DNA of 64,000 bases from an uncultured Candidatus Binatia bacterium (GCA_965215605.1 OZ244070.1:1824001-1888000); one strand, 5' to 3'. Shown: positions 21,758 through 57,223, counted from the stretch's first letter. Program-made: numbers and translations. Notes: generated by a model not told the origin, from the sequence alone.

Positions 21758-21773
21758 AGATATATTTTCTATA

Positions 21774-22026: not shown

Positions 22027-22107
22027 AATGGCTGCCCTGATCCGCCACTGGGTCCCGGCCCCGGACCCCGGGTCAGGCCCGGGGAAACTTGATATGGGGA
22101 AAAGAGG

Positions 22108-22452
22108 CTACTTCGCCGCGCAGACCATGATCTCCACCTGGGTGCCCGGGGTGAGCGCCACGCCGATGGCGGCCCGGGCCGGAAGATTGTCCTTGTCGAT
22201 CCAGGCCATCCAGGCCTCGTTCATCTCGTCCTTGGCGTCGATGTCGGCGAGATAGACGGTGGACGTGAGGATGCGGGACTTGTTGGTGCCGGCGAGGGCC
22301 AGGATCTCGTCGATTTTGGCTAACACCTGCTCGGTCTGACCCTTCGTGGACAGGGACTTGTCGTCGGCCACCAGGCCGGACAGGTATACCAGGTCGCCGT
22401 GCACCACGGCGCGACTGTTCCAGACTTGCGGTTTGATGTGTTCGATGCTCAT
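22108..22452 (-). CDS. RidA/YjgF family protein
   Basis: SRAV.HG..VYLSG.V, MNEAW..W, PARA, VEIMV.A. Confidence 0.9.
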   Translation of the reverse strand: MSIEHIKPQVWNSRAVVHGDLVYLSGLVADDKSLSTKGQTEQVLAKIDEILALAGTNKSRILTSTVYLADIDAKDEMNEAWMAWIDKDNLPARAAIGVALTPGTQVEIMVCAAK

Positions 22453-22576
22453 CGGAAGACAGCCTCCTTGTGAAGAATTTCCAGGACGCTATGTGTTCGC
22501 GCTCGCGATGTCAACGCAGAATGCACGGTCCTATTTCACGTCACCTCCTCTAATCATCAGTGCGGGCCAGGTTAAA

Positions 22577-22605
22577 TTGCCTTCGAGGCGAATATCTGTC
22601 ATGAT
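22577..22605 (+). promoter_or_regulatory. sigma70-like promoter, probable leaderless transcript
   Basis: TTGCCT-17-CATGAT, then 6 nt to the ATG at 22612. Confidence 0.45.
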
Positions 22606-22611
22606 CCCCAT

Positions 22612-34220: not shown

Positions 34221-35432
34221 ATGCAGTACCCCAGGTTGCTCGCTGACCGGCTGATCCGGCTCGCGGCACACTTTCCGGCGGTGGTGGTCACCGGTGCGCG
34301 TCAGGCGGGCAAGACGACCCTGATGCGCGCCACCTTCCCGGATCATCACTACGTTTCCCTGGACCTCCCCACCACGGCCGACCAGGCCGAACGCAATCCG
34401 GACCTGTTCCTGCACCACCATCGGGCGCCGGTGCTCATCGACGAGGTGCAGTACGCGCCCGGCCTGTTCCGCCACCTGAAAGCGGCGATCGATGACCGTC
34501 GTCCTGACATGGGCCGCTACATCCTCACCGGGAGCCAGAACTTCACGCTCATGAAAGGGATCTCGGACAGTCTTGCGGGCCGTTGCGGGATCGTGGAGTT
34601 GGAAAACCTGGCGCTGCACGAGATCGACGCCGTGACTCCTCCCGGCGACGACGCGGCCAGCCTCGCCGGCCTGATGGCCCGGGGGCAGTTCCCCGAGTTG
34701 TGGCGCGAGCCGGAGCTGCGGGCGGCGGATTTCTTCGCTTCGTACCTCGCCACCTACCTCGAGCGCGACGTGCGCCAGATCCTGAACGTGGCGAGTCTCC
34801 GGGATTTCGAGCGCTTCGTTCGCTTGCTGGCGGCTCGCTCGGCGGCCATGCTCAACAAGAGCGACGTCGCACGGGACACCGGCGTGGCGGTGAAGACCAT
34901 CGGCGAGTGGGTGAGCGTGCTCCAGGCGTCCGGCCAGATCGTCCTGCTGGAACCCTGGCACGTGAGCTTCGGCAAACGAGTGGTGAAGACTCCGAAGGTC
35001 TATTTCCGCGACAGCGGCCTGCTCTGCTTTCTGCTGGGGCTTGACGCCTCCACGCTGCTCACCTCGCCAGCCCTGGGCGCCGTATGGGAGACGTTCGTGT
35101 TCGCGGAGATGCGCAAGCTGAACGAGGCCGAATCCGCGCCTGTCAACTTCTGGTACTACCGCGACCAACGCGGCCAGGAAGTGGACTTCGTGCGCGACGC
35201 CGGCGGCGTCCTCGGCTTCATGGAGTGCAAGTGGAGCGAGCGGCCCACCCTGCGTGACGCGCGCGGGTTGCTGCGGGTGAGCGCCGGGCTGGCCGCGTCC
35301 AACAGTCCCTGGCGCCCCGGCCCGCACTACGTCATCGGCCGGCCCGTGTCCAGCCATTCCCTCGGTGAGGGCGTGACCGCCGTGTCGCTGCGCGACCTCC
35401 CCGCCATCGTCTCCGGGAATCCGCTCGCCTGA
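34221..35432 (+). CDS. AAA_14 ATPase with DUF4143 domain
   Basis: [44 protein letters not shown]...ECK. Confidence 0.9.
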
Positions 35433-36522: not shown

Positions 36523-36643
36523 TACCTCGCGAAGTCGCCATTTTGGGGGAGCGCCGGTTGCCTCCACCCATTTCGCTAGCAATATCAATAGGTACGGTGC
36601 GGTGGCCACCGTGCCTCCCCACGCTTTGGAGGGGGCAGCTCTG

Positions 36644-37666
36644 TCAGTCCCGTTCAAGTTGGTTCGTCGACGGCTGTGCACGCACATTGGGCAGACGATC
36701 ATTGATCGCGATTGCCAGATCGCACCCGAAGTTCCGCGTGTTGTCCGTGACTACCGTCCGGGCTCCCGTCGCCTCCACATAGGCAAGGGTTTCTTCGAAA
36801 TCAGCGTGGTTCGACAGCGCTACGCGGTATGCCCGATCTGAAAAGATCTTCAATGGATGGTCGTGGTCTACCATGTAAGCGCTACAGGTGACCATTGTCC
36901 CCTCGACTCGCTCGTTCTTGAAACCGTCGCCCTTTGAGTAGAGCCGCACATATGAACGCTGTTGCACGGCGTGCCTGCCGTCGTCGGAATCAAGCGGAAC
37001 CAGTACTCCGGGCGCGAGGCCATGCTGCTGGTATACCTGCACGCGCCGGATTAGCCGCTCGGTGGCCAGAAGGGGAACGCCCACGTTGTCTCCAAGCACC
37101 TGCAAGGTGCGTTCGATGGTTCCGGGGTGGGCGTGGATATGGACTGAACCGTGCCGTAGTCTCGCACAGACTATTTCAGACAGGCAGGCTTCCGCTTGGT
37201 CCTGCGTGTAACCTCGGACGCTACGGGGGTTACCATAAGTACTGTCAACGACCAGTTCATCGACTTGGATCACGTTGTCGAGGGGCCATCCGAAGTCGCC
37301 GGAATATCCAATCCGATGACCGTCTGGCAACTCCAGGGCAACCTGACACGATCCAAGCATGTGGTTCGATGGGACTAGATGTAACGTAAAGCCTTTTCCC
37401 AGATCATGCGCGACACCGCGTTCGACCGGGTGGAAGTTCTCTCGGTACTCCAGATCAGCATTGTACTCGGCAATGAGCAAAGCATAGGTCTCAGGGCTTA
37501 GCAGGAACTCCTGCAGCCCCTTGCTCTTGTTGAACGCACCCATGTGGTCTTCATGGACGTGTGTCTGGACACGGAAGCGGCAGCCATTAGCGAAACCGTC
37601 GCACACGACCATCTCGCCGAGGCAGACAGCGCCACTCTCCCGCACGTCAACCATCGGGTCAGGCAT
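36644..37666 (-). CDS. MBL-fold, beta-CASP-like nuclease
   Basis: THVHEDH, NHMLGS, YSGDF, VDSTYG, LSNHADF; the ATG at 37666 overlaps the upstream stop by 8 nt. Confidence 0.8.
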   Translation of the reverse strand: MPDPMVDVRESGAVCLGEMVVCDGFANGCRFRVQTHVHEDHMGAFNKSKGLQEFLLSPETYALLIAEYNADLEYRENFHPVERGVAHDLGKGFTLHLVPSNHMLGSCQVALELPDGHRIGYSGDFGWPLDNVIQVDELVVDSTYGNPRSVRGYTQDQAEACLSEIVCARLRHGSVHIHAHPGTIERTLQVLGDNVGVPLLATERLIRRVQVYQQHGLAPGVLVPLDSDDGRHAVQQRSYVRLYSKGDGFKNERVEGTMVTCSAYMVDHDHPLKIFSDRAYRVALSNHADFEETLAYVEATGARTVVTDNTRNFGCDLAIAINDRLPNVRAQPSTNQLERD

Positions 37667-38369
37667 TTGCGACACACTCCGCAACAAAGGCGCGCAGCAG
37701 AGATTCAATGTCTTGCTTGCCGACATGCTTCATTGACACGCCAAAACCCTCGTCCCCGACCAAGGTGAAAATTTTGGGGCCTAGGCGTCCTGACGCCCCC
37801 TTTAGCCCGATTTTCTCCACGCCCGCCGCCAACATTGCATCCCTTTCTCTTTGTGGAAGCTCCGCAAGAGCTCGCTGTGCACCGCGATCAAGTATGGTGC
37901 CGATGAACACGTAACGCCGGTCGATTGCTTGCCGCATGTTGATGACTTCCTTCACGCACTCGCTGACCGGCCGTCGTGAGCGTTCGTGCAGTTGCACGAC
38001 CTGTCGGACCTCTTTGCTATTCAGGCCGTTGGCGAGTATCGCTTCGGCGACCGTGCGTTGGTCGTCAGCTTTCGGAAGTCGGGTGAGTTCGGTAGCACAA
38101 GAGAACCCCACGGCATCTCGAGGGCTGCCCCAACTTATCACGTGCCGGAGGTCGTCCGGGAGGTCAAGAATACGCAGGAAACGTCTAACGCCCGTCGCGT
38201 CGATCCAGGTCTCCTTTGCACATTCGTCAAGTGAACTGCCGGCATCGCATGCCCGCTGCAGCAATGCACCGACTTCGACCGGCGAAAGTAGACGCTCCTT
38301 TCTATGTTTCCCGTAGCCGACCGACATCCGGAGACGTCCAAGTTCTAGAGGGCTCAGACCTGGGAGCAT
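37659..38369 (-). CDS. ParB-like HTH/C-terminal domain protein lacking the CTPase domain
   Basis: LSPVEVG...G.S..E.A.....V.R.L.ILDLP...A..L..L...Q...A..I...LN.KEV resembles the Spo0J HTH region; no GxRR motif. Confidence 0.55.
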   Translation of the reverse strand: MLPGLSPLELGRLRMSVGYGKHRKERLLSPVEVGALLQRACDAGSSLDECAKETWIDATGVRRFLRILDLPDDLRHVISWGSPRDAVGFSCATELTRLPKADDQRTVAEAILANGLNSKEVRQVVQLHERSRRPVSECVKEVINMRQAIDRRYVFIGTILDRGAQRALAELPQRERDAMLAAGVEKIGLKGASGRLGPKIFTLVGDEGFGVSMKHVGKQDIESLLRAFVAECVANA

Positions 38370-38383
38370 GATGGCTACTAATC

Positions 38384-39202
38384 TCAGAGTCCGCGGCCGG
38401 TCAGCGCCTCTTCGATGAGCATGACGGTCGCGTCTCCCTGGTTGGTGCCTTCTTCCCGGGCGACCTGCTGGATGGCACGATGCGTATCCTGTGTCACGGT
38501 AGCGACAACCTGGATGACCTTCGAGCCGGACTTCGCGCCCTCTATAACCTCTACGACAGACTTGTCGGGATTGTCTCTTCGATCCTCCTCCACCTTCTTG
38601 CGTTGGGCTCCTGACATCGATGCCATCTCCTGGGCCAAGACAAGGGCGTCGTCGGTGTTGACCGCGCCGTCGTCGTCCGTTGCCGAATCCTGCGCACGCA
38701 GTGCGGCATTGACATCAACTTGTCCTTCGTCGACCAAGTCCTTCAGTTGTTTCACCAGCCGGGGGTACTTTACGTAGTCCCGCACTTCCCGATGGGGCAG
38801 GCCTGTTGTCTTGACCACGTCCTGAACGCTTCCGTATATGTTGTAAAGGTAAAGGATTCCATCCTTGAGTTCTTTGCCCGACAGCTTGCGACGTATTAGG
38901 TTTTCGGTGATGGAGATTGTCTTGGCCTCAGCCTGCCCGACTTGGCTGTCAAGCACGGCGGCCGAGATGGTGTCTCGATTCAGCATCTTGTAAGCGAGGA
39001 AGCGCCGCTGACCTGTAAGGATCTCCCATTTCCCGGGCTGTTGTTTCGACTTGCAAACCACGATCGGTTGCAGTAGCCCTTGCGCTTCGATACTTGCGGC
39101 GAGATCCTCAACGCCGGCCCCCGGGTTCTCTGTCCGGACCTGTCCCAGACCAATTACCAAGTCGTCGAGGGGTATTTCGCGGTAATCGATGATTTTTGCC
39201 AT
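38384..39202 (-). CDS. ParB/RepB/Spo0J family protein
   Basis: LA.SI...GLLQPIVV, EILTGQRRFLA, ENL.R..LS; AGGAG RBS before the ATG at 39202. Confidence 0.88.
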   Translation of the reverse strand: MAKIIDYREIPLDDLVIGLGQVRTENPGAGVEDLAASIEAQGLLQPIVVCKSKQQPGKWEILTGQRRFLAYKMLNRDTISAAVLDSQVGQAEAKTISITENLIRRKLSGKELKDGILYLYNIYGSVQDVVKTTGLPHREVRDYVKYPRLVKQLKDLVDEGQVDVNAALRAQDSATDDDGAVNTDDALVLAQEMASMSGAQRKKVEEDRRDNPDKSVVEVIEGAKSGSKVIQVVATVTQDTHRAIQQVAREEGTNQGDATVMLIEEALTGRGL

Positions 39203-39206
39203 GGCT

Positions 39207-40619
39207 TTAGTCTCCTTCGGTTGCATTGGAAGAGGGCGAAAGGGTGCCCTCCGCAAGTTCTAAAATCTCCATGAGTTCGCGCTTGGTGAGTCGCCCGCGC
39301 ACCGTCCCCACAGATTCGATGACCTCGTCGAATAGGGCCTCCTTCCGGTCGAGCACTGTAGCTATGCGCTCTTCGACCGAGTCTCGGACCAGGAAACGGA
39401 TGACATGCAGCGGCCCTTCCCGTTCGAAGCGGTGCGCTCGGTAGACTGCCTGGAACTCGACTGCAGGATTCCACCAGCGGTCGAACAGGACGGCGTGGGT
39501 CGCCTCCCCGAGGTTCAGGCCGACGCCGCCGGCACGAAGGGAAATCAATAGTGCCCGCGGTGTTTGGCCTGTCCTGAACCGGTCGATAGAAATCTGTCTC
39601 TCGGCTGCCGGCATGGATCCGATCAGAAGGTCGTGGGGTATTCCGATCCGCTGGGAAATCTGCCGCAGGGTCTGGACGAACTGCGAAAACACAATCATCC
39701 TCGCCGATTGCCCAGCGCCTTCGCAGATGGCTGTGAGGGCCTCCAGTTTCGATGAAGCACCGCTCTCGACGTCGTAGTTGCAGATCACCTTTAGTCGCGT
39801 AATGAGACCGAGCATGGCGGCGTTGGAGTCTTCCTTTTCCCCGCCGATTTGTGCCGTTCTGGCCGCCCACAGATCGTCGTAGGCGATCCTTTGTGGCGAC
39901 GAGAGCTCGAGGTACAGATCCTGTACGATGACAGCCGGCAGTTCGGCCCGCACTTCACGTTTCCGCCGCCGCAGCATCATTGCCTCCAGCCTCTTGTTCA
40001 GCCGTGTTGCATCGGGATCCCGACGAATATCGGGGTCCAGGAAGGCGAGGATTGAGGCGACGTCTTCGCGGTCGTTTTCGAGCGGCGTCGCAGACAGTGC
40101 CCACGCACGTTTTCGCGGCAGCAGCCGGCAGGCGAGTGCCGTTGCGGAGTTCTTGTTCTTGATGCGTTGCGCTTCGTCCAGGATGACGAGATCGAACGTG
40201 CCTTTGGGAATCTGATCCAGTCCGTCTTGACGGATCTGTTCGTAAGAGGAGACGAGAACAGGGATCGGCAGCAGGTAGAATGCCTTCCGGCTGGCGGCCC
40301 CGCCCTGAAGCCGTCGCGTCGCCAGTGACGGTGCCCATGTAGTGAGTTCGGACATCCAGTTCAGCGTCAGCGAGGCAGGGGCCACGATCAAGGCTCGGTC
40401 GATCCCCTTTTGTCCATTGAGGAGAAGTGCAAGAGCGATTGCTGCCTGGACGGTTTTTCCCAATCCCATCTCGTCAGCGAGAAGGGCAGACGTGGACTGG
40501 TACAGGAATGCCACTCCCTCCCACTGGTACGTGTGAAGGGCGGCGGGGAGCATGAGTTGATCTTCGGCCGCGCTCCGGAGATCTTGCACGTCCAGCGTCA
40601 CTCGAAGACCCACACCCAC
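39207..40619 (-). CDS. minimal SNF2-family (SF2) ATPase/helicase
   Basis: YQ.EG, LADEMGLGKT, DEAQRIKN, SATPLEN, SSK, IVFSQF, AGGVGLNL, WWNPA...QA..RAHR. Alternative GTG start at 40601. Confidence 0.9.
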   Translation of the reverse strand: MGVGLRVTLDVQDLRSAAEDQLMLPAALHTYQWEGVAFLYQSTSALLADEMGLGKTVQAAIALALLLNGQKGIDRALIVAPASLTLNWMSELTTWAPSLATRRLQGGAASRKAFYLLPIPVLVSSYEQIRQDGLDQIPKGTFDLVILDEAQRIKNKNSATALACRLLPRKRAWALSATPLENDREDVASILAFLDPDIRRDPDATRLNKRLEAMMLRRRKREVRAELPAVIVQDLYLELSSPQRIAYDDLWAARTAQIGGEKEDSNAAMLGLITRLKVICNYDVESGASSKLEALTAICEGAGQSARMIVFSQFVQTLRQISQRIGIPHDLLIGSMPAAERQISIDRFRTGQTPRALLISLRAGGVGLNLGEATHAVLFDRWWNPAVEFQAVYRAHRFEREGPLHVIRFLVRDSVEERIATVLDRKEALFDEVIESVGTVRGRLTKRELMEILELAEGTLSPSSNATEGD

Positions 40620-40720
40620 ACGGCAGCTTCAGCGATATCTCGTTGGCATGTCTCGATAACCGCCCGCGAAATGTGCTGTGTCATCGAAGTTAGCCTGTGA
40701 CCAGCGAACTGCAAATACAT
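40598..40720 (-). CDS. possible 40-aa ORF bridging the DUF262 and SNF2 genes
   Basis: My translation is MYLQFAGHRLTSMTQHISRAVIETCQRDIAEAAVWVWVFE*; its stop forms a GTGA overlap with the alternative SNF2 start. Confidence 0.25.
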   Translation of the reverse strand: MYLQFAGHRLTSMTQHISRAVIETCQRDIAEAAVWVWVFE

Positions 40721-40736
40721 ATGACTTCATTGACCA

Positions 40737-42509
40737 TTAGCTCTCCTCGCGTCCGGAAAAGCACCACACCTGAGCGGCCGCCTTTGCGAGGTCCCTTGAG
40801 CGTTCGGCCACCGCCGTCGGAGTCCACTCGTCATGTATAGCTACATCGCGCGTCATTCCAAATGGGCTGGTCTCAAAAACGGCCTTCTTGGCGGCGAAGT
40901 TCGCGTTGAAACGGTGCCGTGCATGATTGCCGCTGTCGCCCAGCAATGTCAGATTCCCGATTCGAGCAACCCAGTCCCGGAGGTCGTATCCCACCGACGT
41001 GAAGCCGGTCCAACCGGACCAGTAGGTCTCCGACTGCGGCAAGATGTGTTCCACGGAACATCCTTCATAGTCGAATGCGCGGCCTTCACGTTCTTGCTTG
41101 CCGTTGATTCCGAACAACAGTCGTTTGGCTCGCCGGGAATCGGTCATCTGAACATCGAGGAGGCGAGAAATAAATCGTGTGTCGTCCATTATCATCAAGT
41201 CATCACATTCTTCGAGATCTGTTTTTATGTCGAGGTCAGCGACCTTGCTACTGGTCGCGATTCTCCTGGCACAATTGGCAAAACCCGGCTCTACTCTGGA
41301 TGGTTCGAATTTGGCCCCGCAGAAGGAGAGGCGCATCACGAAGGAAGAAAGGTCGCTGAGGCAGTGATGCGCGGCTTTGGCTACTGCTCTCCGGTACCGA
41401 TCTTCGGCTTCAATGAACTTCCGTAACAATGCAAACATTAGCGGTTGCACGACCTTATAACCACCCAATTCCTGAATGAACACAGGCAGATTACGTTTGT
41501 TTCGGGTGGTGCCGGACGCCGTGCAGAAGGCATTAAGCAGTTCCTTGCTTGGGTTTGTGGCAGTGATAGTCCGGAACAGTTCCACGGCAGCGGGACTAGC
41601 AAGCTCATGGACTAGCGCGTAAACGTGCTTGTCTCCATCCGGTCGTCGCCCAGGATTGCGGATCTTCGCCCGAGTATCGCGATAAAAGCGGGTCTTCTGA
41701 AGATAGCCGTACCGACATTGAAAGAAACAGCGGAAATACTCTTGGGATCGCGTAGTGCTTCGAGTAGTTGCGAGGACGCTTTCAAGCTGCTCGTGGACGG
41801 TGGCGCGCCGCTCTGAGTCGGCAGGATCTGTGAAGTACGAGTAAAGGTGGTTTCGAATTAGATCAACGTCATCCAGTCGCTTGCCTCGTCCATTGAGGGC
41901 TTCGAAAACGGCATTGGCGTCCTCTGTCTTGGGGACGTAGAGGACACCAATCTCTACCTTCTGCGTCAGGAAATCGAAAAACGTTTGGGTCTCACTCGGC
42001 CCCATTGCGCTGACGAACAGGGCCACTTCGTTCCAGGCGGAGGTCAATTTGCCGTTCGTCCCGATGTCGAGGCCACGGATAATCTGAGTAAACCGCGATC
42101 GGTCTTGGCGTGGCGGCTCGACGCGAGGCACATCCCGGGTCGTGTCGTCGAAGTTGGTGACCGCGTTCTCCGGGCGATCGAACAGTACGCGCAACGCGAG
42201 CATTTCACGGCCAGCGTCCGTGTCGCGGTTATTTGCGAACCGCCGGCCGAATGCAGCAAAGAGTAGGGAGAGGGTGATCATGCGCTGCTGACCGTCGTTG
42301 ATTTCCCAAACATCCTCACCCGCGACCAGCATAATGGACCCGAGGAAGTAACTTGCCCGATCTTCGTCCAGGGCTTCCTTGAGGTCGACCAACAACTCGG
42401 TGACCTGCTCTACGGTCCAGTCGTAATACCGCTGATGCCACGGCACTGTGAACCGTCCCTTGAGGAAGAGCTCGGACACGAGCAATGCCTCTGACGTGAT
42501 CTGGGTCAT
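40737..42509 (-). CDS. DUF262 + DUF1524 (HNH) protein, SspE/GmrSD-like
   Basis: VP..QR.Y.W, YFLGSI, DGQQR, FE.LN.RG..L..DL.RN; C-terminal VEHILPQ...IGNLTLL...N. Confidence 0.88.
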   Translation of the reverse strand: MTQITSEALLVSELFLKGRFTVPWHQRYYDWTVEQVTELLVDLKEALDEDRASYFLGSIMLVAGEDVWEINDGQQRMITLSLLFAAFGRRFANNRDTDAGREMLALRVLFDRPENAVTNFDDTTRDVPRVEPPRQDRSRFTQIIRGLDIGTNGKLTSAWNEVALFVSAMGPSETQTFFDFLTQKVEIGVLYVPKTEDANAVFEALNGRGKRLDDVDLIRNHLYSYFTDPADSERRATVHEQLESVLATTRSTTRSQEYFRCFFQCRYGYLQKTRFYRDTRAKIRNPGRRPDGDKHVYALVHELASPAAVELFRTITATNPSKELLNAFCTASGTTRNKRNLPVFIQELGGYKVVQPLMFALLRKFIEAEDRYRRAVAKAAHHCLSDLSSFVMRLSFCGAKFEPSRVEPGFANCARRIATSSKVADLDIKTDLEECDDLMIMDDTRFISRLLDVQMTDSRRAKRLLFGINGKQEREGRAFDYEGCSVEHILPQSETYWSGWTGFTSVGYDLRDWVARIGNLTLLGDSGNHARHRFNANFAAKKAVFETSPFGMTRDVAIHDEWTPTAVAERSRDLAKAAAQVWCFSGREES

Positions 42510-43678
42510 AAGGGATGTACGGATTTGAGAAGGGCGAGTCGACCGTTTTCGGTGATCTCGTCACGCCACCAAACGTCTTCGATGCACTCGATTTCCGCCG
42601 GGCTGATGAGGGTGTCGCCGACCGTTTTCTCTAGTGCAAAGAGTCGATCAAGAATGGTTCGGCGGACTGCTAGGGTGAATGGACCGAACACCTGGGAGCC
42701 GTCGGACCGGTTCCGAGGGTTACCGTCACGGCGCACGGGAAGTCGATTGCTGTCGTCCTCCCGCAAGGCGATGAGCCATTCGCGGAAGTCCGACAGGCTT
42801 TCCATCTTCTTGGCCTCCTCGTGCCCTGAATCGATCAGGCCCCGGAGACTGCGGTCTTTAGTGACCACCGTGCATGTCCAACAGCCGAATCGTGGGGAGG
42901 AACTGCCACATGACGGTGCGTCGTCTTGTGTCATTACCAGTGGACACTCGCCCCCTCCGGCTTGACGATAGAGAGTGATTAGCCGGCGATGGGTGCCGCC
43001 CCATGGTGGGCGGCGCTGCATCAATACCATCCAGACATCCTCATCGCTGAGGTCGGCAAGCGGGGAGAATATCCGACAGCCCTCCACAGAGTCGTGTTGA
43101 TTGCTTTTCCCGGCAGACACCTTGCGTCGGTCCATGCCTCGCTGCCGGTTTTGTGACTCGCTCCGGCGGCTACCGATTAGGAGAACGGCCCCCCCATGCT
43201 CTCTCACGATGTCTTGCAACAGACGGCTAGTCGGCCGAATTTTCATTCGGTCTGTGCACCACCGAAAATTCCTGGTGGGAGGTATGTATCCCCGCCCTAT
43301 CACACTCACCCAAAAGGTCTGATCGATGGCTGGTGTGGTGACCCGAATGTCCACAGGCATTTCTTGTGTTGTGGCGGCGGCCTCAATCACGTTGAGCGAT
43401 CCTCGGAGATGCCGAATGACGAGCGGCGACTCGACTAGAGTATCATTGCCGACGATGAAGATGGATCGCTGCCGTTGGTCTGTTGGTAGCCCGGCAACTG
43501 TTTCCCAAATCATCTGTAGGAGAAGGGTAGAGTCCTTCCCTCCAGAATAAGCAACAATCCAGGGATGGCCGTGCTTGCGACAGTACTCCCGTCGGAGGGT
43601 CTCTGCGATCTTCTTGAGCCGCGTAGGTAGACTCGTCAGGCTGTTACTGGTCGCCGTTGAACTCGTCGGCGCCTTCAT
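42506..43678 (-). CDS. dndC: DNA phosphorothioation sulfurtransferase DndC (PAPS-reductase fold)
   Basis: PW.VAYSGGKDST, DTLVESP, FWV..IGRGY.PP...FRWCT.RMKI.P, LY.QA..GECPLV, SCG...RFGCWTCTVV.KD.S, GPFT. Confidence 0.88.
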   Translation of the reverse strand: MKAPTSSTATSNSLTSLPTRLKKIAETLRREYCRKHGHPWIVAYSGGKDSTLLLQMIWETVAGLPTDQRQRSIFIVGNDTLVESPLVIRHLRGSLNVIEAAATTQEMPVDIRVTTPAIDQTFWVSVIGRGYIPPTRNFRWCTDRMKIRPTSRLLQDIVREHGGAVLLIGSRRSESQNRQRGMDRRKVSAGKSNQHDSVEGCRIFSPLADLSDEDVWMVLMQRRPPWGGTHRRLITLYRQAGGGECPLVMTQDDAPSCGSSSPRFGCWTCTVVTKDRSLRGLIDSGHEEAKKMESLSDFREWLIALREDDSNRLPVRRDGNPRNRSDGSQVFGPFTLAVRRTILDRLFALEKTVGDTLISPAEIECIEDVWWRDEITENGRLALLKSVHPL

Positions 43679-44820
43679 GTCGTGATGCTCCGAAGAGTTG
43701 ACACAGCGTCATTAACGCGTTGTCCAACGAAGTCGACCTCTACCTCTGTAGTATAGCGACCAACGCTGAATCGCACGGAGGAGAGTGCCAGCGTTTCGGT
43801 GACACCGAGTCCCTCCAGCACGTGTGATGGCTCAATCGACGCCGCCGTGCATGCGGAACCTGCCGAGATCGCAACATCGCCAAGAGCCAGCATCAGCGAC
43901 TCGGCCTCCACGCCGGGAAAGGCAATGTTCAAAATGCCTGGGACTCGCGCGGTACGGTTGCCGTTGACGACCGCCCCGCCAATCTCGTCCAACCAGCCAA
44001 GGAGGCGTCGGTCGATGGCTGCCACTCGTTCCGCGTCACTACTCTGACAGTCGTTTGTGAGCCGCGCCGCCGCTCCTAGACCAACAACCTGGTGGGTCGC
44101 CAACGTCCCAGCCCGCAGCCCAGCTTCTTGTCCGCCTCCATGGATCTGGGGGATGAGCAACGGCCGAACGGAGCGGCGCACAAATAGAGCACCCACACCT
44201 TTCGGGCCATATATCTTGTGGCCGCTCAATGACAGGAGGTCTACTCCCATGAGCGAGACATCGATCGGAAGTCGTGCGGCGCTCTGTACGGCGTCGACAT
44301 GAAACAGTGTGCCGTTTTTCCGTACCACGCGCGCTATGCTCGGGATATCAGTAACAGTCCCAACCTCATTGTTTACGTGCATAAGGGAGACTAACGCGGT
44401 GTCCGGTCGAAGATCCGCGCGGACGACATCCGGCGTGATCATGCCATCGGCGTCAGGTGTGAGGTAGGTCACCTCCACGCCCTGGCCAGAGAGCCAGTCT
44501 GCGGTATCGAGTACTGCCTTATGCTCTAGTGAGGAGACGAGGAGATGCCGACCGCGTACGCTAGGCGATAGCATTACTCCCTTGATGGCTAAATTGATCG
44601 CCTCTGTCGCACCGGAGGTCCAGAAGATTTCATCGGCGTCTGCGCCGATCAACCGCGAGACATGCCCGCGGGCCTCCTCAATAGCCTCTGAAGCTGCATG
44701 CCCAAAGCGGTGGGTGACGGAATGCGGGTTTCCGAAGACGCCGTCGGCTGTCAGAAACTTGGCCATCGTGTTCGCGACTTCCGGTGCAACAGGGGTCGTC
44801 GCAGCGTAGTCTAGGTACAC
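43675..44820 (-). CDS. dndA: cysteine desulfurase, DndA/IscS-like
   Basis: YLDYAATTP, GNP.S..H, TSGATE, HVDAVQ, SGHKIYGPKG (PLP Lys), SAGSAC (catalytic Cys). ATGA-coupled to dndC. Likely GTG start at 44820, though the ORF is open to 44997. Confidence 0.85.
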   Translation of the reverse strand: MYLDYAATTPVAPEVANTMAKFLTADGVFGNPHSVTHRFGHAASEAIEEARGHVSRLIGADADEIFWTSGATEAINLAIKGVMLSPSVRGRHLLVSSLEHKAVLDTADWLSGQGVEVTYLTPDADGMITPDVVRADLRPDTALVSLMHVNNEVGTVTDIPSIARVVRKNGTLFHVDAVQSAARLPIDVSLMGVDLLSLSGHKIYGPKGVGALFVRRSVRPLLIPQIHGGGQEAGLRAGTLATHQVVGLGAAARLTNDCQSSDAERVAAIDRRLLGWLDEIGGAVVNGNRTARVPGILNIAFPGVEAESLMLALGDVAISAGSACTAASIEPSHVLEGLGVTETLALSSVRFSVGRYTTEVEVDFVGQRVNDAVSTLRSITT

Positions 44821-45091
44821 GCCCTCTTCTGGATACGATACCCACTCGTCGCCTACGAAATACAGTTTTCGATGTGTTTTCAATAAGTTACTCGGTCTAT
44901 GAGGTGCCCCCGTGGCCCTTCCCAACCCTGATAGACTCGGCGGCTCTACCGTTCCAGTTCGTTTAGAATGACTCCACACATATGGATGCAACCGCAAAAC
45001 TGATGCCAGTGTCTGTTGGGTCGAGTCTCGCAGATTTCTTTCGGTGGTTCAACGGATTGTTCTCGACTACCGCTTTACCTGCACTCCCCAC

Positions 45092-45955: not shown

Positions 45956-46882
45956 TCATGCCGCCAAGGTCCCGTTTATCACGTCTTCGTGTTCCGATGG
46001 AACTGACAGAGGGGCGGGCGGGGTGTGAGGTCCGGCCTGCCTCTTGAGTCCTCGTTCGTAGGCCTCGGCCGGGGTGGAGCCGGCGAGGGCGGAATGAGGC
46101 CTTTGGGTGTTGTAGAAGTGGAGCCAGTTGGCGATGGTCCTTTGGGCGGCGAAGCCGTCCGAGAGCTCGTGCAGGTAGACGGCCTCGTACTTGAGGGAGC
46201 GCCACAGGCGCTCGATGAAGATGTTGTCCATGCACCGGCCCCTGCCGTCCATGGAGATGGCGACGCCGGCGTCCTTGAGCACGGAGGTGAACTCCAGGCT
46301 GGTGAACTGGCTGCCCTGGTCGGTGTTGAAGATCTCGGGAGGGCCGTAGCGTTCCAGAGCCTCTGAGAGGGCCTCGACACAGAAGCGGGCATCGAGGGTG
46401 TTCGACAGCCTCCAGGAGAGCACCCGGCGGGTGGCCCAGTCCATCACCGCCACCAGGTACAGGAAGCCCTTCTGGACAGGGATATAGGTGATGTCGGAGG
46501 TCCACGCGTGATTGGGCCGTTCGATGGCGACCCCCTTGAGCCGATAGGGGTAGACCCGGTGCTCGGGATGCGGTCGGGTGGTCCGCGGCGCCTGGTAGAT
46601 GGCCTGTAGACCCATCAGGCGCATCAGACGCCGCACCCGGTGACGACCCACACGGTCGCCCTCCCGCCACAGATGGCGGACCATCTGGCGGCTGCCGTAG
46701 AAGGGGTACTCCAGGAACAGCTTGTCGATCCGGCGCATCAGCGCCAGATTCTCCGCGCTCTCGCCCTTGGGCCGGTGGTACACGGAGGATCGACTCACTC
46801 GAAGCAGATGGCATTGACGGCTCAAGCTGAGCTTGGGATGGCCGGGCTCGATCATCCCCCGGCGCTTCTCCCGGCTCACCAC
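45956..46882 (-). CDS. IS3 transposase OrfB (DDE/rve)
   Basis: YGSR, W.SDITYI, AVMDW, NTDQGSQFTS, DN.FIERLW.SLKYE, YN..RPHSAL. Confidence 0.93.
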   Translation of the reverse strand: MVSREKRRGMIEPGHPKLSLSRQCHLLRVSRSSVYHRPKGESAENLALMRRIDKLFLEYPFYGSRQMVRHLWREGDRVGRHRVRRLMRLMGLQAIYQAPRTTRPHPEHRVYPYRLKGVAIERPNHAWTSDITYIPVQKGFLYLVAVMDWATRRVLSWRLSNTLDARFCVEALSEALERYGPPEIFNTDQGSQFTSLEFTSVLKDAGVAISMDGRGRCMDNIFIERLWRSLKYEAVYLHELSDGFAAQRTIANWLHFYNTQRPHSALAGSTPAEAYERGLKRQAGPHTPPAPLSVPSEHEDVINGTLAA

Positions 46883-47378: not shown

Positions 47379-47603
47379 TCAGAGCACAGTCTGGCGGGCT
47401 ATTCTAGGGAGCCATTCCTCGTCTGGGACATCTCCGCGGAAGTGATCTTCCAGTAGTTCGACCTGGAATCCACGCTCGCGCAGTGCGGCGGCAAAAATCT
47501 TTCCCCCCAGGCATTGATCGAGGACGAAGGTGAGATTTTCAGGCGGCCGGCTCGAATTGCTCGCATCGGATAGCTTCTTCGATGTCTGACGGGGGGCGGG
47601 CAT
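47379..47603 (-). pseudogene. truncated VapC45-like PIN toxin
   Basis: FVLDQCLG...L...G..V....DHF..D.PDEEWL is followed by a stop before the expected LT.D motif; overlaps the DUF433 gene end. Start uncertain. Confidence 0.65.
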
Positions 47604-48246
47604 AATCGGCAGCGAGTTCTTCGACGGAGTCCCCGGCTGCGAAGCTTTGGTAGACGACTCTCGTTGCTATGTGGCTACCCACCAACACGGGACGACCAAA
47701 CGAAATACGCGGATCAACGACAACCCGGGGTTGTTGGACTTCGGCGGGCGGCAGGTCTCTCCGATTGAACAGATGGAGCTTCGTCGCAATACCGGTCATG
47801 TCACGTTCGATTCTCTTCAGGTATGTTCTAAGAAACTCGCGTATACCGATTTGCCCACCTTGAGTTATGTTGACCACCTCCCCGAGTTGGTCAACAAACA
47901 GGTCCATACCATCCGTTTCAAAGTCCTTTTCAGCCAACGGATGTGGCGACGGAAATTGCTGATACAGATAGTCCAGGCCACGCCTAATGCTTCTGAACGG
48001 TACGTTGCATTGTCGAATGGCTTCGAGGACGTGCGCCTCTGTCAGGTTCACGAAAGATAAAAGGCCACGCGATTCGTCGGCCAGCTTGATCACCGGTTCG
48101 GACCATTGCTCGCCTTGGGCGGTCGGATAGGTTCGCCCACGAACCCACGTCCGCAGCGTGCTCGGTGGTATGCGTAGGTAGTGGGCCGCCTCGCCTATTC
48201 CATAGGCCGGCAACTCACGTGGGTCTTTTCCCCCGTAAAGATTCAT
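47539..48246 (-). CDS. HTH + DUF433 antitoxin (VapB45-like)
   Basis: Y...EAA.YL.IP.STL..W, LSF.NL.E, HPLA, VDP.ISFGRP, AGDS.EELA.DY. Confidence 0.85.
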   Translation of the reverse strand: MNLYGGKDPRELPAYGIGEAAHYLRIPPSTLRTWVRGRTYPTAQGEQWSEPVIKLADESRGLLSFVNLTEAHVLEAIRQCNVPFRSIRRGLDYLYQQFPSPHPLAEKDFETDGMDLFVDQLGEVVNITQGGQIGIREFLRTYLKRIERDMTGIATKLHLFNRRDLPPAEVQQPRVVVDPRISFGRPVLVGSHIATRVVYQSFAAGDSVEELAADYARPPSDIEEAIRCEQFEPAA

Positions 48247-48387
48247 TATGTTCCGTTGACGCCACAACTTTCCGGGCGAGTCAAGGGGCAGCCCGCAATA
48301 AACCGGTTTCCTTGGGTTTCTCTTTCTTCAAGAACCCTTGCGTCAAGGCTGCTCGCGGAGACAGTGGACGTCACCGTCCAAACATCA

Positions 48388-53382: not shown

Positions 53383-54057
53383 ATGAACAAGGGAGAAACG
53401 ACCAGAAGCTCAGTGCCAAGGCTACGCGTTAGGAAAGAAATAAGGTCTCGATCTGCCATGAAAGCGAGCAATATCCGCGGTGAGCTTCGCATCCGCAGGG
53501 CACTACGCAACCGACACCTCCGCCACTATAGGAAGCAAGGTGAGGTATTGGTGTTAGATGAGCTAGGGCTGGCTCATGCCCGCAGCCGGGTCGACATGGC
53601 GGTCATTAACGGCTACGTCCACGGCTATGAAATCAAGAGTGCAGTAGATAAGCTTGATAGGCTGCCTCGTCAGTTGGATATCTACCGGAAGTCGCTCCAA
53701 AAGTTGACGCTGGTGGTTGCGCCTCGCCACTTGGAACCAGTGGAAATTGCGGTCCCGAATTGGTGTGGAATACTAGAGGTCGTGCAGGGGACTCGCGGTG
53801 GGATCGGGTTTCGATATGTTCAACGACCGCGAACTAATCCGGACGTGGATCCGTTTATGCTTGCGCATTTGCTCTGGCGGGAAGAAGCGTCGACGGCTTT
53901 GGCAGAACTGGGTGTGGCAAGGCGTGATCTAAAAGGGACACGTAAGGATCTCTATCGGTTGCTGCTTGAGATGATGTCTATGCCGGACCTTACGGCGTTG
54001 ATCAAACGATCAATGCTGCAGCGACGAAGTTGGCGAGATTTTCCACGACCAGTGTGA
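53383..54057 (+). CDS. sce7726-family protein (PD-(D/E)xK-like)
   Basis: DEL......RVD.AV.NG..HGYEIKS..D.L.RLP.Q...Y, P.WCG, LLWREE. Start may be the ATG at 53458. Confidence 0.75.
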   Translation: MNKGETTRSSVPRLRVRKEIRSRSAMKASNIRGELRIRRALRNRHLRHYRKQGEVLVLDELGLAHARSRVDMAVINGYVHGYEIKSAVDKLDRLPRQLDIYRKSLQKLTLVVAPRHLEPVEIAVPNWCGILEVVQGTRGGIGFRYVQRPRTNPDVDPFMLAHLLWREEASTALAELGVARRDLKGTRKDLYRLLLEMMSMPDLTALIKRSMLQRRSWRDFPRPV

Positions 54058-55102
54058 TGTGATGGTTTATCCCGACTTCCTTCCAGCGGGTAAGGTTGCT
54101 CGGGTTAGCATGACCGACGGCACAGTCGGCAATGTACTGATCACCGGAACAAAAGCCCTGACCGCGGAACTCGAAACGGGCACCGTTGACGATCTCGGCA
54201 CAATGTACGTGCATTTGCTCGGGATTGTCCCGGAACGCCCCGCCTTTGCGGGTAGCCCAGGTCGTAGAGGCCGTGTAGATGACCTTGCCGGCTGGTTTAA
54301 TCTTCCGCATGTCTACGGCGGTGAAGGCCGGATGGACAGTCGTATAGTCGCCATAGATTGGCCGCCGCATTCCCACCGGGAGTCGACTTAGCAAGGCTTG
54401 AAAGAAGAGCCAGTCATGGCGTGGAATTTCGTCAGAGCCCATAGCAATGTTTCCGAATGTTTCAGGAACAGCCGTGCTAATGAGTACGAAGGTTCTGAAG
54501 GCGTCGATATTGCCCAGACGCCGAATTGCCGTGATCAATGCATTTGCAAATGTGTGGTAGGGATGAAAGTTCGGCGCACGTAGATCGACGATCAGGTCCA
54601 CCTCCTGGGGCGTAAGCGCGAGCCCATTGGCCAAAGCCAATATCCTCGTTCTGGCCGCAGGTCGCATTAGATCTTCGAGCCTGATCGTTACGCCGGCTCC
54701 TTGGCGGTCGCGAGAGGTGGCCCGTGCGGCCGCTGAAACGGTGTCTATGTCAGCACCTAAGGGCACGGCGGGGATGGCAGTTGCGTTGTGGGGCCTGAGA
54801 CCGTCGAATACGTAGTCAAAGACGTGGCTTCCATCATCCATACGGCCAACGGCGATGGAGTCGTCCAGCATGATCCAAGCCGGACGCTTACCCCATTTGG
54901 CTTTGTAACGGGGGACAAAAGGAAGGACGTGTGCGTGGATCGTACTCTTAAGCTGCCGAGATTCAAAATCGAACTCTACTTCGGGAATCGAAATTAGGGG
55001 GACGACCTTGGCTTTGACCGGTTCTTTGAGGCGAAGTAGAGCTTGGTACTCGCCTTGCCGCCACCGCAAGGCGGGTACATACACGTCTTCACGCAAGATC
55101 AT
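54002..55102 (-). CDS. beta-family protein (T4 beta/sce7725-like)
   Basis: YVP.L.W.QGE..AL, YGDY..VHP, ..Y, GD.YI, ..W.....NHHI..V. Confidence 0.78.
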   Translation of the reverse strand: MILREDVYVPALRWRQGEYQALLRLKEPVKAKVVPLISIPEVEFDFESRQLKSTIHAHVLPFVPRYKAKWGKRPAWIMLDDSIAVGRMDDGSHVFDYVFDGLRPHNATAIPAVPLGADIDTVSAAARATSRDRQGAGVTIRLEDLMRPAARTRILALANGLALTPQEVDLIVDLRAPNFHPYHTFANALITAIRRLGNIDAFRTFVLISTAVPETFGNIAMGSDEIPRHDWLFFQALLSRLPVGMRRPIYGDYTTVHPAFTAVDMRKIKPAGKVIYTASTTWATRKGGAFRDNPEQMHVHCAEIVNGARFEFRGQGFCSGDQYIADCAVGHANPSNLTRWKEVGINHHITLVVENLANFVAAALIV

Positions 55103-56381
55103 CTGTGACCTCAGTGAATTGGTTACGGACACGGTCTTGGCCGACAAGGTGGTTTAGGATTGCGTAGTCGCCCTGTTCTTTGCGAATGCGCCCTGCGATG
55201 ATACTCGTATCGATACCAAGTGTTTCAGCGTCCAGACGGACGGCTTCTTCAGTCATTGCGAAGCGCGAAAGGCATTGATCCCAAGCCTCATCGGAGATGA
55301 GACAGTTTAGGGCGAACTGGTCGGCTTCCAGTTCTACACGATCACCTTCGGCTGGGCCTTCTTCGTCGAAGAAATCGTAGCGCAGGCCGGTCATCAGATG
55401 CAGGAACACGTGTCCCAATTCGTGGAGCAAGACAAACCAGAAGTTGTCTAGGCGGTCGTAGCGAAGTGTGAGGCCGACAACTGGGTGCCCATCGCCAGTC
55501 AACATTGCCGCGCCATCCAGATAGGTCCCGGGAAGGTGCTCTTCGGTGATCAACACGATTCCCTTCCGAGCCAACAGACCCCGTGCTCTTCTAGGACCGT
55601 CCGCGCGGCGTGTGAGGGCAACGAGGGCGGGCAACCAACGATCATCCAAGACGAACTCTGGCAACCCGCTGTGGGCTACCTTTTCGCGAGCCCGTTCAAG
55701 CACTCGCGCCTGCCATGCCAGCAGGGAGTACTCATTCGGTATTGTGCCGAAGTTGATTTTTTTTCGGTGAAACGCAGTCAGGAATTCGGGGCCAGCGGCT
55801 TCAAGGATGTATTCCTTGACCCTGTGCACGACATCGGCGCCTCGGGGCAGGTCAAACCAGCGTCTCTTACGCATCTCGTTAATCGGGAACTGTTGCCAGA
55901 GGATATCGTCGGCATTCGCCCACGAGACTACAGCACCGTGGGTCGTTCGGTCGCCCTCAAACAGGCCTGAAGTGTGGACATTGAGAATCTTCGAAATCTC
56001 GATTAGTCGCGCAAGGCTAGCACCCATATAGTTTGAAGCCTCATAGCGTTGAATTTGCTGGGGTTTTATGCCGAGCGTTTGCGCTAGATCAGTCTGGCTC
56101 ATACCGGCCGCAATGCGCGCCTCCACGAGCATTGAAGGCAGATTCTCAAGCGCGAAAGACTTGGCAAAGGTGAATTCACCTGCCTTCAGTAGGTCGTAGT
56201 GGGCGATCTCCGCTTCTAGTTCGGCGATCTGGCTTCGGAGAGCGGCAATCTGCGCATCGCGCAACCAAGCTTGATCGGGCTTGGAGGTTTGCGCGCTAGT
56301 TAGCGCATCTTTCAGCTTGGTCAGCTCGCGTTTCGAGATGCGGTATTGCTGATCGCTGTAGACCATGGCGCCACCTTTCAT
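55089..56381 (-). CDS. XRE HTH + ImmA/IrrE-type metallopeptidase fusion (HigA-like)
   Basis: ARI..G.SQ.DLA..LG...QQIQRYE HTH; LDGAA, RLDNFWF.LLHELGH (HExxH), E.EAD.FA. Alternative start at 56366. Confidence 0.88.
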   Translation of the reverse strand: MKGGAMVYSDQQYRISKRELTKLKDALTSAQTSKPDQAWLRDAQIAALRSQIAELEAEIAHYDLLKAGEFTFAKSFALENLPSMLVEARIAAGMSQTDLAQTLGIKPQQIQRYEASNYMGASLARLIEISKILNVHTSGLFEGDRTTHGAVVSWANADDILWQQFPINEMRKRRWFDLPRGADVVHRVKEYILEAAGPEFLTAFHRKKINFGTIPNEYSLLAWQARVLERAREKVAHSGLPEFVLDDRWLPALVALTRRADGPRRARGLLARKGIVLITEEHLPGTYLDGAAMLTGDGHPVVGLTLRYDRLDNFWFVLLHELGHVFLHLMTGLRYDFFDEEGPAEGDRVELEADQFALNCLISDEAWDQCLSRFAMTEEAVRLDAETLGIDTSIIAGRIRKEQGDYAILNHLVGQDRVRNQFTEVTDDLA

Positions 56382-56845
56382 TGGATCATTGGCTCATTGG
56401 GCAATTCAATTAGGACGAGCCCTTTCTTGCGGCCGCTGAAACGCTCAATCTGGAAAAAGTCAATGAAAGTCGTGCCGGCTCGGTCCGCCGGCCAACCTGA
56501 GGGGAAGAACTCCCCTTTGTACTTATTTTTTTGGGCGGCGCGGTTATTCTCGAAGTTGAGGAAGACGGGATCGAGGAGCGTTGGATCGACCCCGCTTGGG
56601 TCCCAGCAGACATCGTAGTCGCGGGGGTTGGGTTTCGCGGTCACAAAACTGCCGTCCAAGTATAGGCGCTGGCAGCCCGCTTGCTTGAGGTTCCGAGAGG
56701 CGTCGAGAAGGCCGTGGAAAAGCGTCCTGCGCCACGGGTTGATGGCAAGGCTGGAAGCCACTTCCCTGAAGTCCGCGCTGTGCAAACCCTCGGGTAACAC
56801 AGACCAAGGCGCACCTGGGATGCAAATCAATGTCGGTAACACCAC
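56378..56845 (-). CDS. minimal nucleotidyltransferase-like protein (DUF6932-like)
   Basis: LP.G.H, LDGSFVT.K..P.D.D (GS...DxD pol-beta motif), KG tail. Confidence 0.75.
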   Translation of the reverse strand: MVLPTLICIPGAPWSVLPEGLHSADFREVASSLAINPWRRTLFHGLLDASRNLKQAGCQRLYLDGSFVTAKPNPRDYDVCWDPSGVDPTLLDPVFLNFENNRAAQKNKYKGEFFPSGWPADRAGTTFIDFFQIERFSGRKKGLVLIELPNEPMIQ

Positions 56846-56846
56846 C

Positions 56847-56879
56847 TACAACTATAATGTTGTAATGAGTGGATGTCAA
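56847..56879 (-). promoter_or_regulatory. near-consensus sigma70 promoter with operator palindrome
   Basis: TTGACA-17-TATAGT, then 5 nt to the GTG at 56845; perfect TACAAC-N6-GTTGTA (56847-56864) over the -10 box. Confidence 0.75.
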
Positions 56880-56924
56880 CGGGTATTTCCTTGGCGCGCG
56901 TGCACCGGCAACGATGGAACCTTG

Positions 56925-57223
56925 CCGCAGATCGAGATGCGGTTCTGCGCCATCAATTTCTTCTGATGAAGTCATGGCTGGTCATGCGCTGGTCCTGTAG
57001 AGGTCGCCCAGGAACGTAGTGGAGCCACTCAGAGCGCACCCTTACGAAGGTCGTCCTAAGCTTCGGGAATCGTTCGGCGATGCGATCCTTGCCGCAGCGC
57101 CCTCAACGCCAACGCAGGCGTATCCGCCTACTTCCAGCATTCCCCCATCCAGCGGTTGTAGCTCCGGCATGGCGCGAGTTCGTTGTCGGGCCTAGTGTCG
57201 GCGGGCTGATGAAAAATCGCGGC
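56925..57223 (-). pseudogene. degraded third copy of the tandem amidohydrolase
   Basis: 57131-57182 matches 60600-60651 at 47/52 nt. Fragments ELAPCRSYNRWMGECWK*, RLRW, DRIAERFPKL, WLHY, DLYR and LMAQNRI occur with frameshifts. Confidence 0.8.

Follow-up and report, generated by a model that had tools for sequence, protein, structure and literature searches.

Can phosphorothioate (PT) modification of DNA by a Dnd-type system dispense with DndD and DndE? The question is raised by seven genes (g1-g7) in a 64,000-nucleotide (nt) stretch of DNA (the window, whose numbering is used throughout) from an uncultured Candidatus Binatia bacterium (GCA_965215605.1 OZ244070.1:1824001-1888000). They occupy positions 36644-44820, all on the minus strand, and encode a cysteine desulfurase (DndA), a short DndC, a GmrSD-family protein related to DndI, an SNF2-family ATPase, two ParB-type proteins and a beta-CASP nuclease. 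PT installation has been described in a review as needing a sulfurtransferase of the PAPS-reductase type together with an ATPase (DndD, CxC or SspC) and a subunit that recognizes DNA (DndE or SspB), and the accessible text of a reappraisal of Dnd systems (PMC10853773) holds DndD and DndE to be the universal core and anchors its survey on them. We conclude that the locus is probably a horizontally acquired Dnd-type PT restriction-modification defence locus, with an architecture that we did not find described. It is a variant within Dnd-type PT restriction-modification rather than a categorically new system.

Gene content of the locus

A first-pass annotation, made from the sequence by a model, had reported seven co-oriented genes in a lower-GC island, and these were recovered at the same coordinates by open reading frame (ORF) calling on the window, with starts set from homologue lengths and the sequence itself. 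The junctions are as it described. The overlaps of g1 with g2 (43675-43678) and of g2 with g3 (42506-42509) are 4 nt each, g4 and g5 are spaced by 4 nt and g5 and g6 by 14 nt, g6 and g7 overlap by 8 nt, and the 117 nt between g3 and g4 form the sole sizeable gap in the island. The GC content per kb is 0.53-0.59 over 37-45 kb, compared with ~0.63-0.70 in the surroundings, and the GC content at third codon positions is 0.64-0.69 in the five island genes, of seven, that were listed by the filter and 0.85-0.94 in flanking genes. The proposed gene identities, dndA-dndC-DUF262/HNH-SNF2-ParB-ParB(HTH)-beta-CASP, were upheld by domain and fold searches (Table 1). When the PADLOC models were used as a hidden Markov model scan of the seven proteins, matches were confined to DndA/SspA, DndC, Orf5/HEC-06 and generic SNF2 models, and g5-g7 had no significant match. 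Motif alignments of g2, g3, g4, g5 and g7 were built on homologues of 45-70% identity.

Table 1. Position and identification of the seven genes, the island that contains them and the genes at its borders
Feature	Position	Strand	Basis
g1, DndA/IscS-type cysteine desulfurase, 381 amino acids	43675-44820	minus	Pfam Aminotran_5 4.8e-83
g2, short DndC, PP-loop sulfurtransferase, 390 amino acids	42506-43678	minus	TIGR03183
g3, GmrSD-family DndI-like protein, 590 amino acids; N-terminal DUF262 NTPase and C-terminal DUF1524 HNH	40737-42509	minus	Pfam GmrSD_N 3.3e-25, GmrSD_C 1.1e-17
g4, SNF2-family ATPase, 470 amino acids	39207-40619	minus	Pfam SNF2-rel_dom 7.9e-45, Helicase_C 8.8e-19
g5, ParB-family protein, 272 amino acids from ATG; N-terminal NTP-binding domain and helix-turn-helix (HTH)	38384-39202	minus	Pfam ParB_N 3.2e-13
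g6, ParB-HTH protein, 236 amino acids, lacking the ParB N-terminal domain	37659-38369	minus	Pfam HTH_ParB 1.1e-5
g7, beta-CASP metallo-beta-lactamase-fold nuclease, 340 amino acids	36644-37666	minus	fold match and HxHxDH
Inserted island, ~8.6 kb	36523-45091		bounded by the aldo-keto reductase stop and the short-chain dehydrogenase stop
Flanking aldo-keto reductase gene	ends 36522	plus	
Flanking short-chain dehydrogenase gene	ends 45092	minus	

The desulfurase g1, which starts at a GTG codon (44820) preceded by a purine-rich stretch, matches the PADLOC models for SspA (1.5e-145) and DndA (2.9e-142). Two more paralogues of 43-45% identity were found in the genome by tblastn, so that g1 is an extra copy; it is the presumed sulfur donor of the locus. 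Its neighbour g2 scores above the cut-off of the DndC model TIGR03183 (336.5 against 290.4 bits), spanning positions 6-341 of 447. It aligns with residues 30-392 of a canonical DndC of 489 residues at 36% identity and lacks the C-terminal ~100 residues. The SGGKDS (PP-loop) motif and six cysteines of g2 are invariant among 18 homologues. In the PADLOC scan g2 was assigned to DndC (6.3e-112) well ahead of SspD (5.5e-6) and BrxP (1.8e-10). No relative of g2 was found in the PDB either by sequence search or with a profile of the 18 homologues.

The third protein, g3, has DndI (9JFL) as its sole PDB sequence match (E 1.3e-8). It shows the domains of a DndI-type protein, a DUF262 domain with DGQQR and a C-terminal DUF1524 HNH domain, and the DGQQR motif and the nuclease-motif residues E-H, N and N are invariant among 25 homologues. 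PADLOC models for HEC-06 (7.4e-68) and, over the full length, Orf5 (9.6e-47) match it. The Salmonella dpt cluster has ORF5 as an additional gene (PMC2978375), and DndI is a DUF262+HNH nickase, the ATPase of which is stimulated by PT and which restricts PT-free DNA (PMC11662687), as far as the available text of these sources goes; from the descriptions in both papers we infer that ORF5 is the gene later described as DndI.

The 4-nt overlap of g2 and g3 implies translational coupling, and structure prediction supports binding of the DndI-like protein to DndC. The model of the complex reached a score of 0.61, a measure of model confidence and not a measurement, while the best control reached 0.00; at least 91% of the contacts were common to three runs and the partner had a predicted local distance difference test (pLDDT) value of at least 82. 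When the scoring was calibrated, the mark was reached by 58 of 80 solved complexes and by 2 of 110 mismatched pairs, counts that are only a rough guide here because our own alignments were used. The modelled interface comprises DndC residues 115-120 and 148-160 and the C-terminal helix (360-388), with many invariant residues there. Since DndC has no relative in the PDB, a memorized solved complex is an unlikely source of the score. In four of the loci surveyed below (L027, L032, L040 and L074) a protein of ~260 residues with GmrSD_N alone is encoded between DndC and the DndI-like gene, representing a split or duplicated N-terminal domain.

The four genes downstream of the 117-nt gap encode what we term the cassette. 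The SNF2-family protein g4 consists of the helicase core with no added domain, and its Walker A and DEAQ motifs are invariant among 19 homologues. The start of g5 was placed at an ATG that lies 18 codons inside the longest ORF. The protein exceeds the cut-off of TIGR00180 (62.8 against 58.45 bits), and its GQRRFLA and ENL motifs, which we take to be the ParB CTP-binding boxes II and III, are invariant among 22 homologues. The predicted structure of g6 (pLDDT 92.6) has a helical part with weak resemblance to the DNA-binding domains of Spo0J, Noc and ParB (E 1e-3, template modelling (TM) score 0.35-0.42), and its closest Atlas clusters are ParB HTH proteins. No match to g7 was obtained in the Pfam scan, and its match to the NCBIfam model of a ligase-associated exonuclease (TIGR04122, 6.8e-13) is under the cut-off. 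Its predicted structure (pLDDT 89) matches the folds of Artemis, SNM1A, Apollo, CPSF73 and RNase J (E ~1e-14, TM 0.62-0.75), and the HxHxDH motif is invariant among 20 homologues. The start of g7 was set at M21 of the ORF from the ~340-residue length of its homologues.

Recurrence and modular composition across genomes

A scan of one representative genome per species (185,579 species) gave 537 stretches with a relative of g2, and the best 80 of these, at 57-100% identity, are the basis of all locus counts, with genes located by tblastn of the seven proteins at a coverage of >50%. The 80 loci span 12 named phyla, and the short-DndC clade comprises >120 protein clusters at ≥67% identity. DndC is present in 80 loci by selection, the DndI-like protein in 72, DndA in 62, SNF2 in 42, ParB in 41, ParB-HTH in 43 and the nuclease in 41. 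The survey of close DndC homologues that the first-pass annotation had proposed thus shows that three or all four of the downstream genes recur in 41 of the 80 loci, and 39 of those 41 have the order and strand seen in the window. The same order in dozens of loci from many phyla is not due to chance.

Clustering of neighbouring ORFs in the 80 loci showed that another pair recurs downstream of the core, a GIY-YIG protein of ~110 residues and a DndB of ~425 residues (PF14072 1.5e-29), and DndB (PF14072) is present in 29 loci. Sorted by content, the loci fall into 37 with at least three cassette genes, 25 with DndB but no cassette, 4 with cassette and DndB together, 4 with one or two cassette genes and 10 with neither; restricted to the 68 loci whose flanks reach at least 7 kb on each side, the corresponding numbers are 35, 21, 2, 3 and 7. 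A quick maximum-likelihood tree of 71 short DndC proteins and one canonical outgroup (nine loci were omitted, their DndC lying outside the main ORF cluster) has the SNF2 and GIY-YIG/DndB cassettes interleaved, with at least nine switches forced by well-supported branches. Phyla are mixed within its clades, as with Rhodothermota and Thermodesulfobacteriota. Pairwise-distance correlations over 35 loci, all of which are inflated by relatedness, are 0.87 for DndC with the DndI-like protein, 0.82 for SNF2 with the nuclease and 0.67-0.76 for DndC with the cassette proteins. The overall picture is of a stable DndA-DndC-DndI-like core followed by an exchangeable cassette. The single seven-gene system put forward in the first-pass annotation accordingly stands as a recurring unit and falls as an indivisible one, since the core also occurs with GIY-YIG and DndB or with neither cassette, and the cassette occurs beside canonical dndABCDE genes (see below).

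Other genes recur at these loci. The dnd-associated methyltransferase TIGR04096 was found in 7 of the 80. A PT-DNA-binding restriction endonuclease (NF045808) adjoins the short-DndC genes of five loci (L015, L019, L029, L040 and L059), which is odd for a PT-making locus; the L015 member was scored directly (312 bits, cut-off 180) and the other four were assigned by ORF clustering. Two loci that carry one isolate label (L002 and L003) both have g3-g7 at 98-99% identity to the window, and their DndA and DndC are 99% identical to those of the window in one and 95% and 93% in the other, which points to mosaic exchange inside the island or to a bin that holds two strains. Several taxa among the loci with a g2 relative are presumably typical of marine sponge microbiomes. 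A 2016 study, in its accessible text, reports Dnd genes as enriched in sponge metagenomes 'though not functionally complete' (PMC5099237).

Association of the cassette with Dnd genes

The 80 loci were chosen via DndC, and the cassette was also approached from its nuclease. A metagenome scan with g7 found seven loci, three of which were too short for their context to be judged, and Dnd genes lie alongside the cassette in all four of the others. One (L082) has the full seven-gene order again, and in two (L086 and L087) the nuclease gene adjoins dndA. In the fourth (L084) the SNF2-ParB-ParB-HTH-nuclease genes, at 38-47% identity, are convergent with canonical dnd genes whose products all score over the cut-offs (DndB 514.8 bits, full-length DndC 659.7, DndD 570, DndE 122 and DndA 490). 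Within the genus of the window's organism the nuclease was found in 5 of 28 genomes, and each of the six copies has a short DndC 5-6 kb away; the short DndC without the cassette occurs in four more genomes of the genus. The nuclease was not detected in 400 other genomes sampled from the whole phylum, and tblastn gave no match in 72,556 plasmid records. Judged from this small independent sample and from the 80 loci selected through DndC, the cassette seems to be specific to Dnd systems, whether short or canonical.

These data bear on the possibility that two independent systems are neighbours here, a PT system of DndA, DndC and the DndI-like protein and an SNF2-ParB-ParB-HTH-beta-CASP system that works by itself and requires no PT mark, brought together by the clustering of defence genes. 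The 117-nt gap would then mark the boundary, and such independence would fit the exchange of the cassette for GIY-YIG and DndB between sister DndC lineages, its inversion or displacement in L006 and L036, its position beside a very different canonical Dnd cluster in L084 and correlations that are higher within modules (0.87 and 0.82) than between them. However, Dnd genes accompany every metagenome copy with context (4 of 4) and every copy in the genus (6 of 6), small as these samples are, and the nuclease is absent from the 400 phylum genomes and from the plasmid records. We consider two unconnected systems unlikely and favour a single PT locus with an exchangeable restriction cassette.

Missing Dnd partners and comparison with known systems

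The window's genome is 97% complete, and the DndD model TIGR03185 has no match in it. DndD was over the cut-off in none of 10 other chromosome-level genomes that carry the system, and tblastn with the canonical DndD of L084 returned only a 48-residue Walker A stretch (E 0.002) from the window's genome. The DndE model TIGR03184 likewise had no match in that genome, although this small, divergent protein was detected by the search in no control genome either; tblastn with the L084 DndE gave a best E of 0.58. The genome also has no match to the DndB/DGQHR model TIGR03187 or, by tblastn, to the L084 DndB, and none to PglZ (PF08665), which extends genome-wide the earlier remark that DndB and PglZ are unrecognizable in the window. 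No DndD-like or DndE-like ORF cluster recurs in the 80 neighbourhoods. The PADLOC scan of g1-g7 gave no match to models of SspB, SspC, DpdA, DpdB or DpdC.

DndD is absent from the window's genome and from all 10 other carriers, which disposes of the suggestion, raised with the initial proposal, that dndDE invariably accompany dndAC. We also rejected an origin by recent deletion from dndABCDE, the short DndC being a deep, conserved clade far from canonical DndC.

Among characterized systems, the closest in composition is IscS-DndBCDE-DndI of Salmonella enterica Cerro 87, which in the available description (PMC11662687) combines a desulfurase and DndC with a DUF262+DUF1524 protein. The window differs in having no match to DndB, DndD or DndE (the DndE search being weak) and a DndC that is ~100 residues shorter. 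The g3 protein is only distantly related to Salmonella DndI (E 1.3e-8), it has His in place of Tyr25, and its gene overlaps dndC and its product is predicted to bind DndC. The canonical DndABCDE-DndFGH system has the same sulfur-donor and sulfurtransferase families and the same logic of modification with a motor and a nuclease, but in the window DndD and DndE are missing and SNF2, two ParB-type proteins and a beta-CASP nuclease stand in for DndFGH. In the accessible text of the Dnd reappraisal (PMC10853773) SNF2 and ParB are named only with DndH and DndB, and metallo-beta-lactamase proteins are not mentioned. SspABCD-SspE resembles the locus in its desulfurase, PAPS-reductase-family enzyme and PT-sensing DUF262+HNH effector, whereas g2 is of the DndC type (6.3e-112) and not the SspD type (5.5e-6), and neither SspB nor SspC is among the seven proteins. 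BREX type 4 is set apart by the lack of PglZ in the genome and by a BrxP match to g2 of 1.8e-10 only. The 7-deazaguanine system Dpd also has a DNA-modifying enzyme with a ParB-superfamily NTPase (DpdB) and SNF2 helicases, but its chemistry is different, and the match of g4 to DpdE models (6.1e-57) covers only the C-terminal helicase part of those much longer models.

The Tdp system is the one from which the locus is least clearly separated. It is said to include a hexameric TdpA together with TdpB. According to the introduction of a citing paper, tdpC alone of the tdpABC cluster is enough for PT synthesis, so that, by that description, PT can be made from one gene without partners of the DndD/E type; the system goes unnamed in a large review. 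Because this precedent is reported, PT synthesis without DndD and DndE is less surprising than it would otherwise be. The short DndC could make PT on its own in the manner of TdpC, the locus then being a Tdp variant in which the DndI-like protein is a restriction effector only, and the 7 loci, of the 68 with both flanks, in which the DndA-DndC-DndI-like core stands without another conserved partner would suit such an enzyme. None of the NCBIfam or PADLOC matches of g2 carries a Tdp name, however, its neighbours in the locus (a GmrSD-type protein and the SNF2, ParB and beta-CASP genes) differ from TdpA and TdpB as described, and the predicted DndC/DndI-like interface favours a complex, so that we regard this assignment as improbable. 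Tdp, set apart by description only, is the main gap in the claim of novelty.

A dndC, P-loop and DUF262 neighbourhood in Sulfurimonas sp. is mentioned in one sentence of another paper as a possible undescribed PT system (PMC12914056); it shares with the window a dndC accompanied by a DUF262 gene, and the accessible text of that source has no gene list, survey or test. No description of the seven-gene set was found in full-text literature searches (which do not extend to supplementary files), in the Dnd reappraisal, in a BREX survey or in a dissemination study, as far as their main texts go. The earlier statement that the gene set is not a named system thus holds for the set as a whole and not for g3, which has a named relative in DndI/ORF5. 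As far as these sources could be consulted, the partial precedents are DndI, the one-sentence Sulfurimonas note and the tdpC statement.

The island and its insertion site

The borders of the island were defined by comparison with an empty site. Five genomes of the same genus without DndC (G021, G022, G024, G032 and G034) were compared. The match to the empty site of G022 (L092) stops at 36522, the stop codon of the reductase gene, and restarts at ~45098, and these alignment limits therefore place the island at 36523-45091. The reductase and dehydrogenase genes are 162 and 206 bp apart in G022 and G021 and 1.1, 8.4 and 11 kb apart in G032, G024 and G034, respectively. At this position G024 (L089, G024:C1:2565300-2574000) has low-GC DNA encoding Vsr, a Dcm C-5 cytosine methylase, a GHKL-type ATPase, a protein with a Z1 domain and a DUF4420 PD-(D/E)XK protein. 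This cargo identifies the site as a variable hotspot for genes of the restriction-modification type. The island is thus foreign in origin, having been horizontally acquired at a defence hotspot.

The ORF and domain scan found no integrase, replication or ParA gene in the island, and a partition or plasmid-maintenance role for the ParB genes was rejected on this ground. A promoter and terminator scan of the island gave sites no more numerous than in shuffled sequence, and none in the 117-nt gap.

Several other features of the site and its surroundings were recorded. The 11 kb at the site in G034 is other DNA, and the 1.1 kb in G032 contains one unassigned ORF. The empty 162-bp spacer of G022 (L092) has two GC-rich palindromic elements in inverted orientation, resembling repetitive extragenic palindromes, and the island substitutes for the entire spacer. 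Just past the dehydrogenase gene are a gene for an insertion-sequence-type transposase (rve, HTH_21; 45956-46882, minus strand) and, within a low-GC kb, a gene for an HTH_66 and DUF433 protein (47539-48267). Two genes ahead of the island is an AAA_14/DUF4143 ATPase gene (34221-35432), and a lower-GC stretch at 20600-23820 holds genes for a SRAP peptidase (21041-21757) and an AAA_21 ATPase (22612-23820). A second low-GC stretch (53400-57000; 0.55-0.58), with a gene of the 'Beta protein' family PF14350 (54002-55147) and a DUF6932 gene (56378-56845), both on the minus strand, may be another acquired island.

Proposed function of the locus

In the mechanism that we propose, DndA would draw sulfur from cysteine, and the short DndC, with its PP-loop and Fe-S cysteines, would insert it into the DNA backbone without DndD and DndE, which are taken to be uninvolved because the genome lacks them. 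The DndI-like protein accompanies DndC in 72 of the 80 loci, has NTPase and nuclease motifs, is encoded by an overlapping gene and is modelled as binding to DndC, and we therefore propose one DndC/DndI-like complex that would both install PT and nick unmarked DNA. The DndI-like protein may supply the NTPase and DNA-handling activities that are given elsewhere by DndD and DndE, and would nick DNA that lacks the mark, as Salmonella DndI does. In the cassette, loading on DNA would fall to the ParB/HTH pair, translocation to the SNF2 motor and degradation of unmarked DNA to the beta-CASP nuclease, making the cassette a functional analogue of DndFGH with the same combination of motor and nuclease. 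That the chemistry is PT is supported by the PT-linked neighbours of the short-DndC loci, namely DndB, the TIGR04096 methyltransferase and the PT-DNA-binding endonuclease.

A bolder version of this proposal is tentative, and the balance is against it. It would have DndC and the GmrSD-type protein form a self-contained writer-restrictor in place of DndD and DndE, and the cassette represent a PT-coupled SNF2-ParB-ParB-HTH-beta-CASP family with an NTP-gated ParB clamp that serves short and canonical Dnd systems alike and is spreading over at least 12 phyla.

Several points weigh against a Dnd-type PT defence locus. The sequence data establish the gene content, the conserved catalytic motifs, the recurrence and linkage of the genes, the absence of DndD (and, by a weaker search, of DndE) and the foreign origin at a defence hotspot; the PT chemistry, the defence phenotype and the division of labour between the proteins are inferred. 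Published reconstitutions and surveys require an ATPase and a DNA-recognition subunit, and no dedicated equivalent is proven here. On the DndA model TIGR03235 g1 scores 378.9 bits, under the cut-off of 480, and its top NCBIfam matches are IscS models. Generic HEC-06 models outscore the Orf5/DndI models on g3, and the position of Y25, the reported PT-sensing residue of DndI, is His25 in g3, with W24 and H25 nearly invariant in the g3 family. The support for the DndC/DndI-like complex is a model score, and the distance correlations overstate linkage. Lastly, the cassette could act independently, given its exchange between sister lineages and the 117-nt gap, and it is rearranged in the two loci mentioned above.

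A role outside PT defence altogether, whether another sulfur modification (of bases or RNA) or a decaying dnd remnant, with ParB genes that maintain a mobile element, would accommodate a DndC without its C-terminal ~100 residues and usual partners and the classical part of ParB proteins in partition, but it is very improbable in view of the large, conserved short-DndC clade (537 loci and >120 clusters) with invariant catalytic residues, which is not a recent truncation, an island without replication, integrase or ParA gene, PT-specific accessory genes that recur alongside and a site that is a defence hotspot.

Significance

Two features make a Dnd-type PT locus of this composition of interest, a DndC clade that lacks DndD and DndE and has a GmrSD-type protein coupled to it, and an undescribed cassette of four genes associated with Dnd systems. 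A DndC clade that works without DndD and DndE would escape surveys anchored on these proteins or on the rule of three activities, and the clade is not small, with 537 loci among representatives of 185,579 species. Gene order is nearly identical over 12 phyla at 57-75% protein identity, which clearly exemplifies the transfer of a defence island between phyla. If the proposal is true, the known range of PT modification widens and there exists a compact, three-gene PT restriction-modification unit with which the part played by a GmrSD-type protein on the modification side could be probed. The PT field would also gain a restriction module that is composed of a motor, a clamp and a nuclease.

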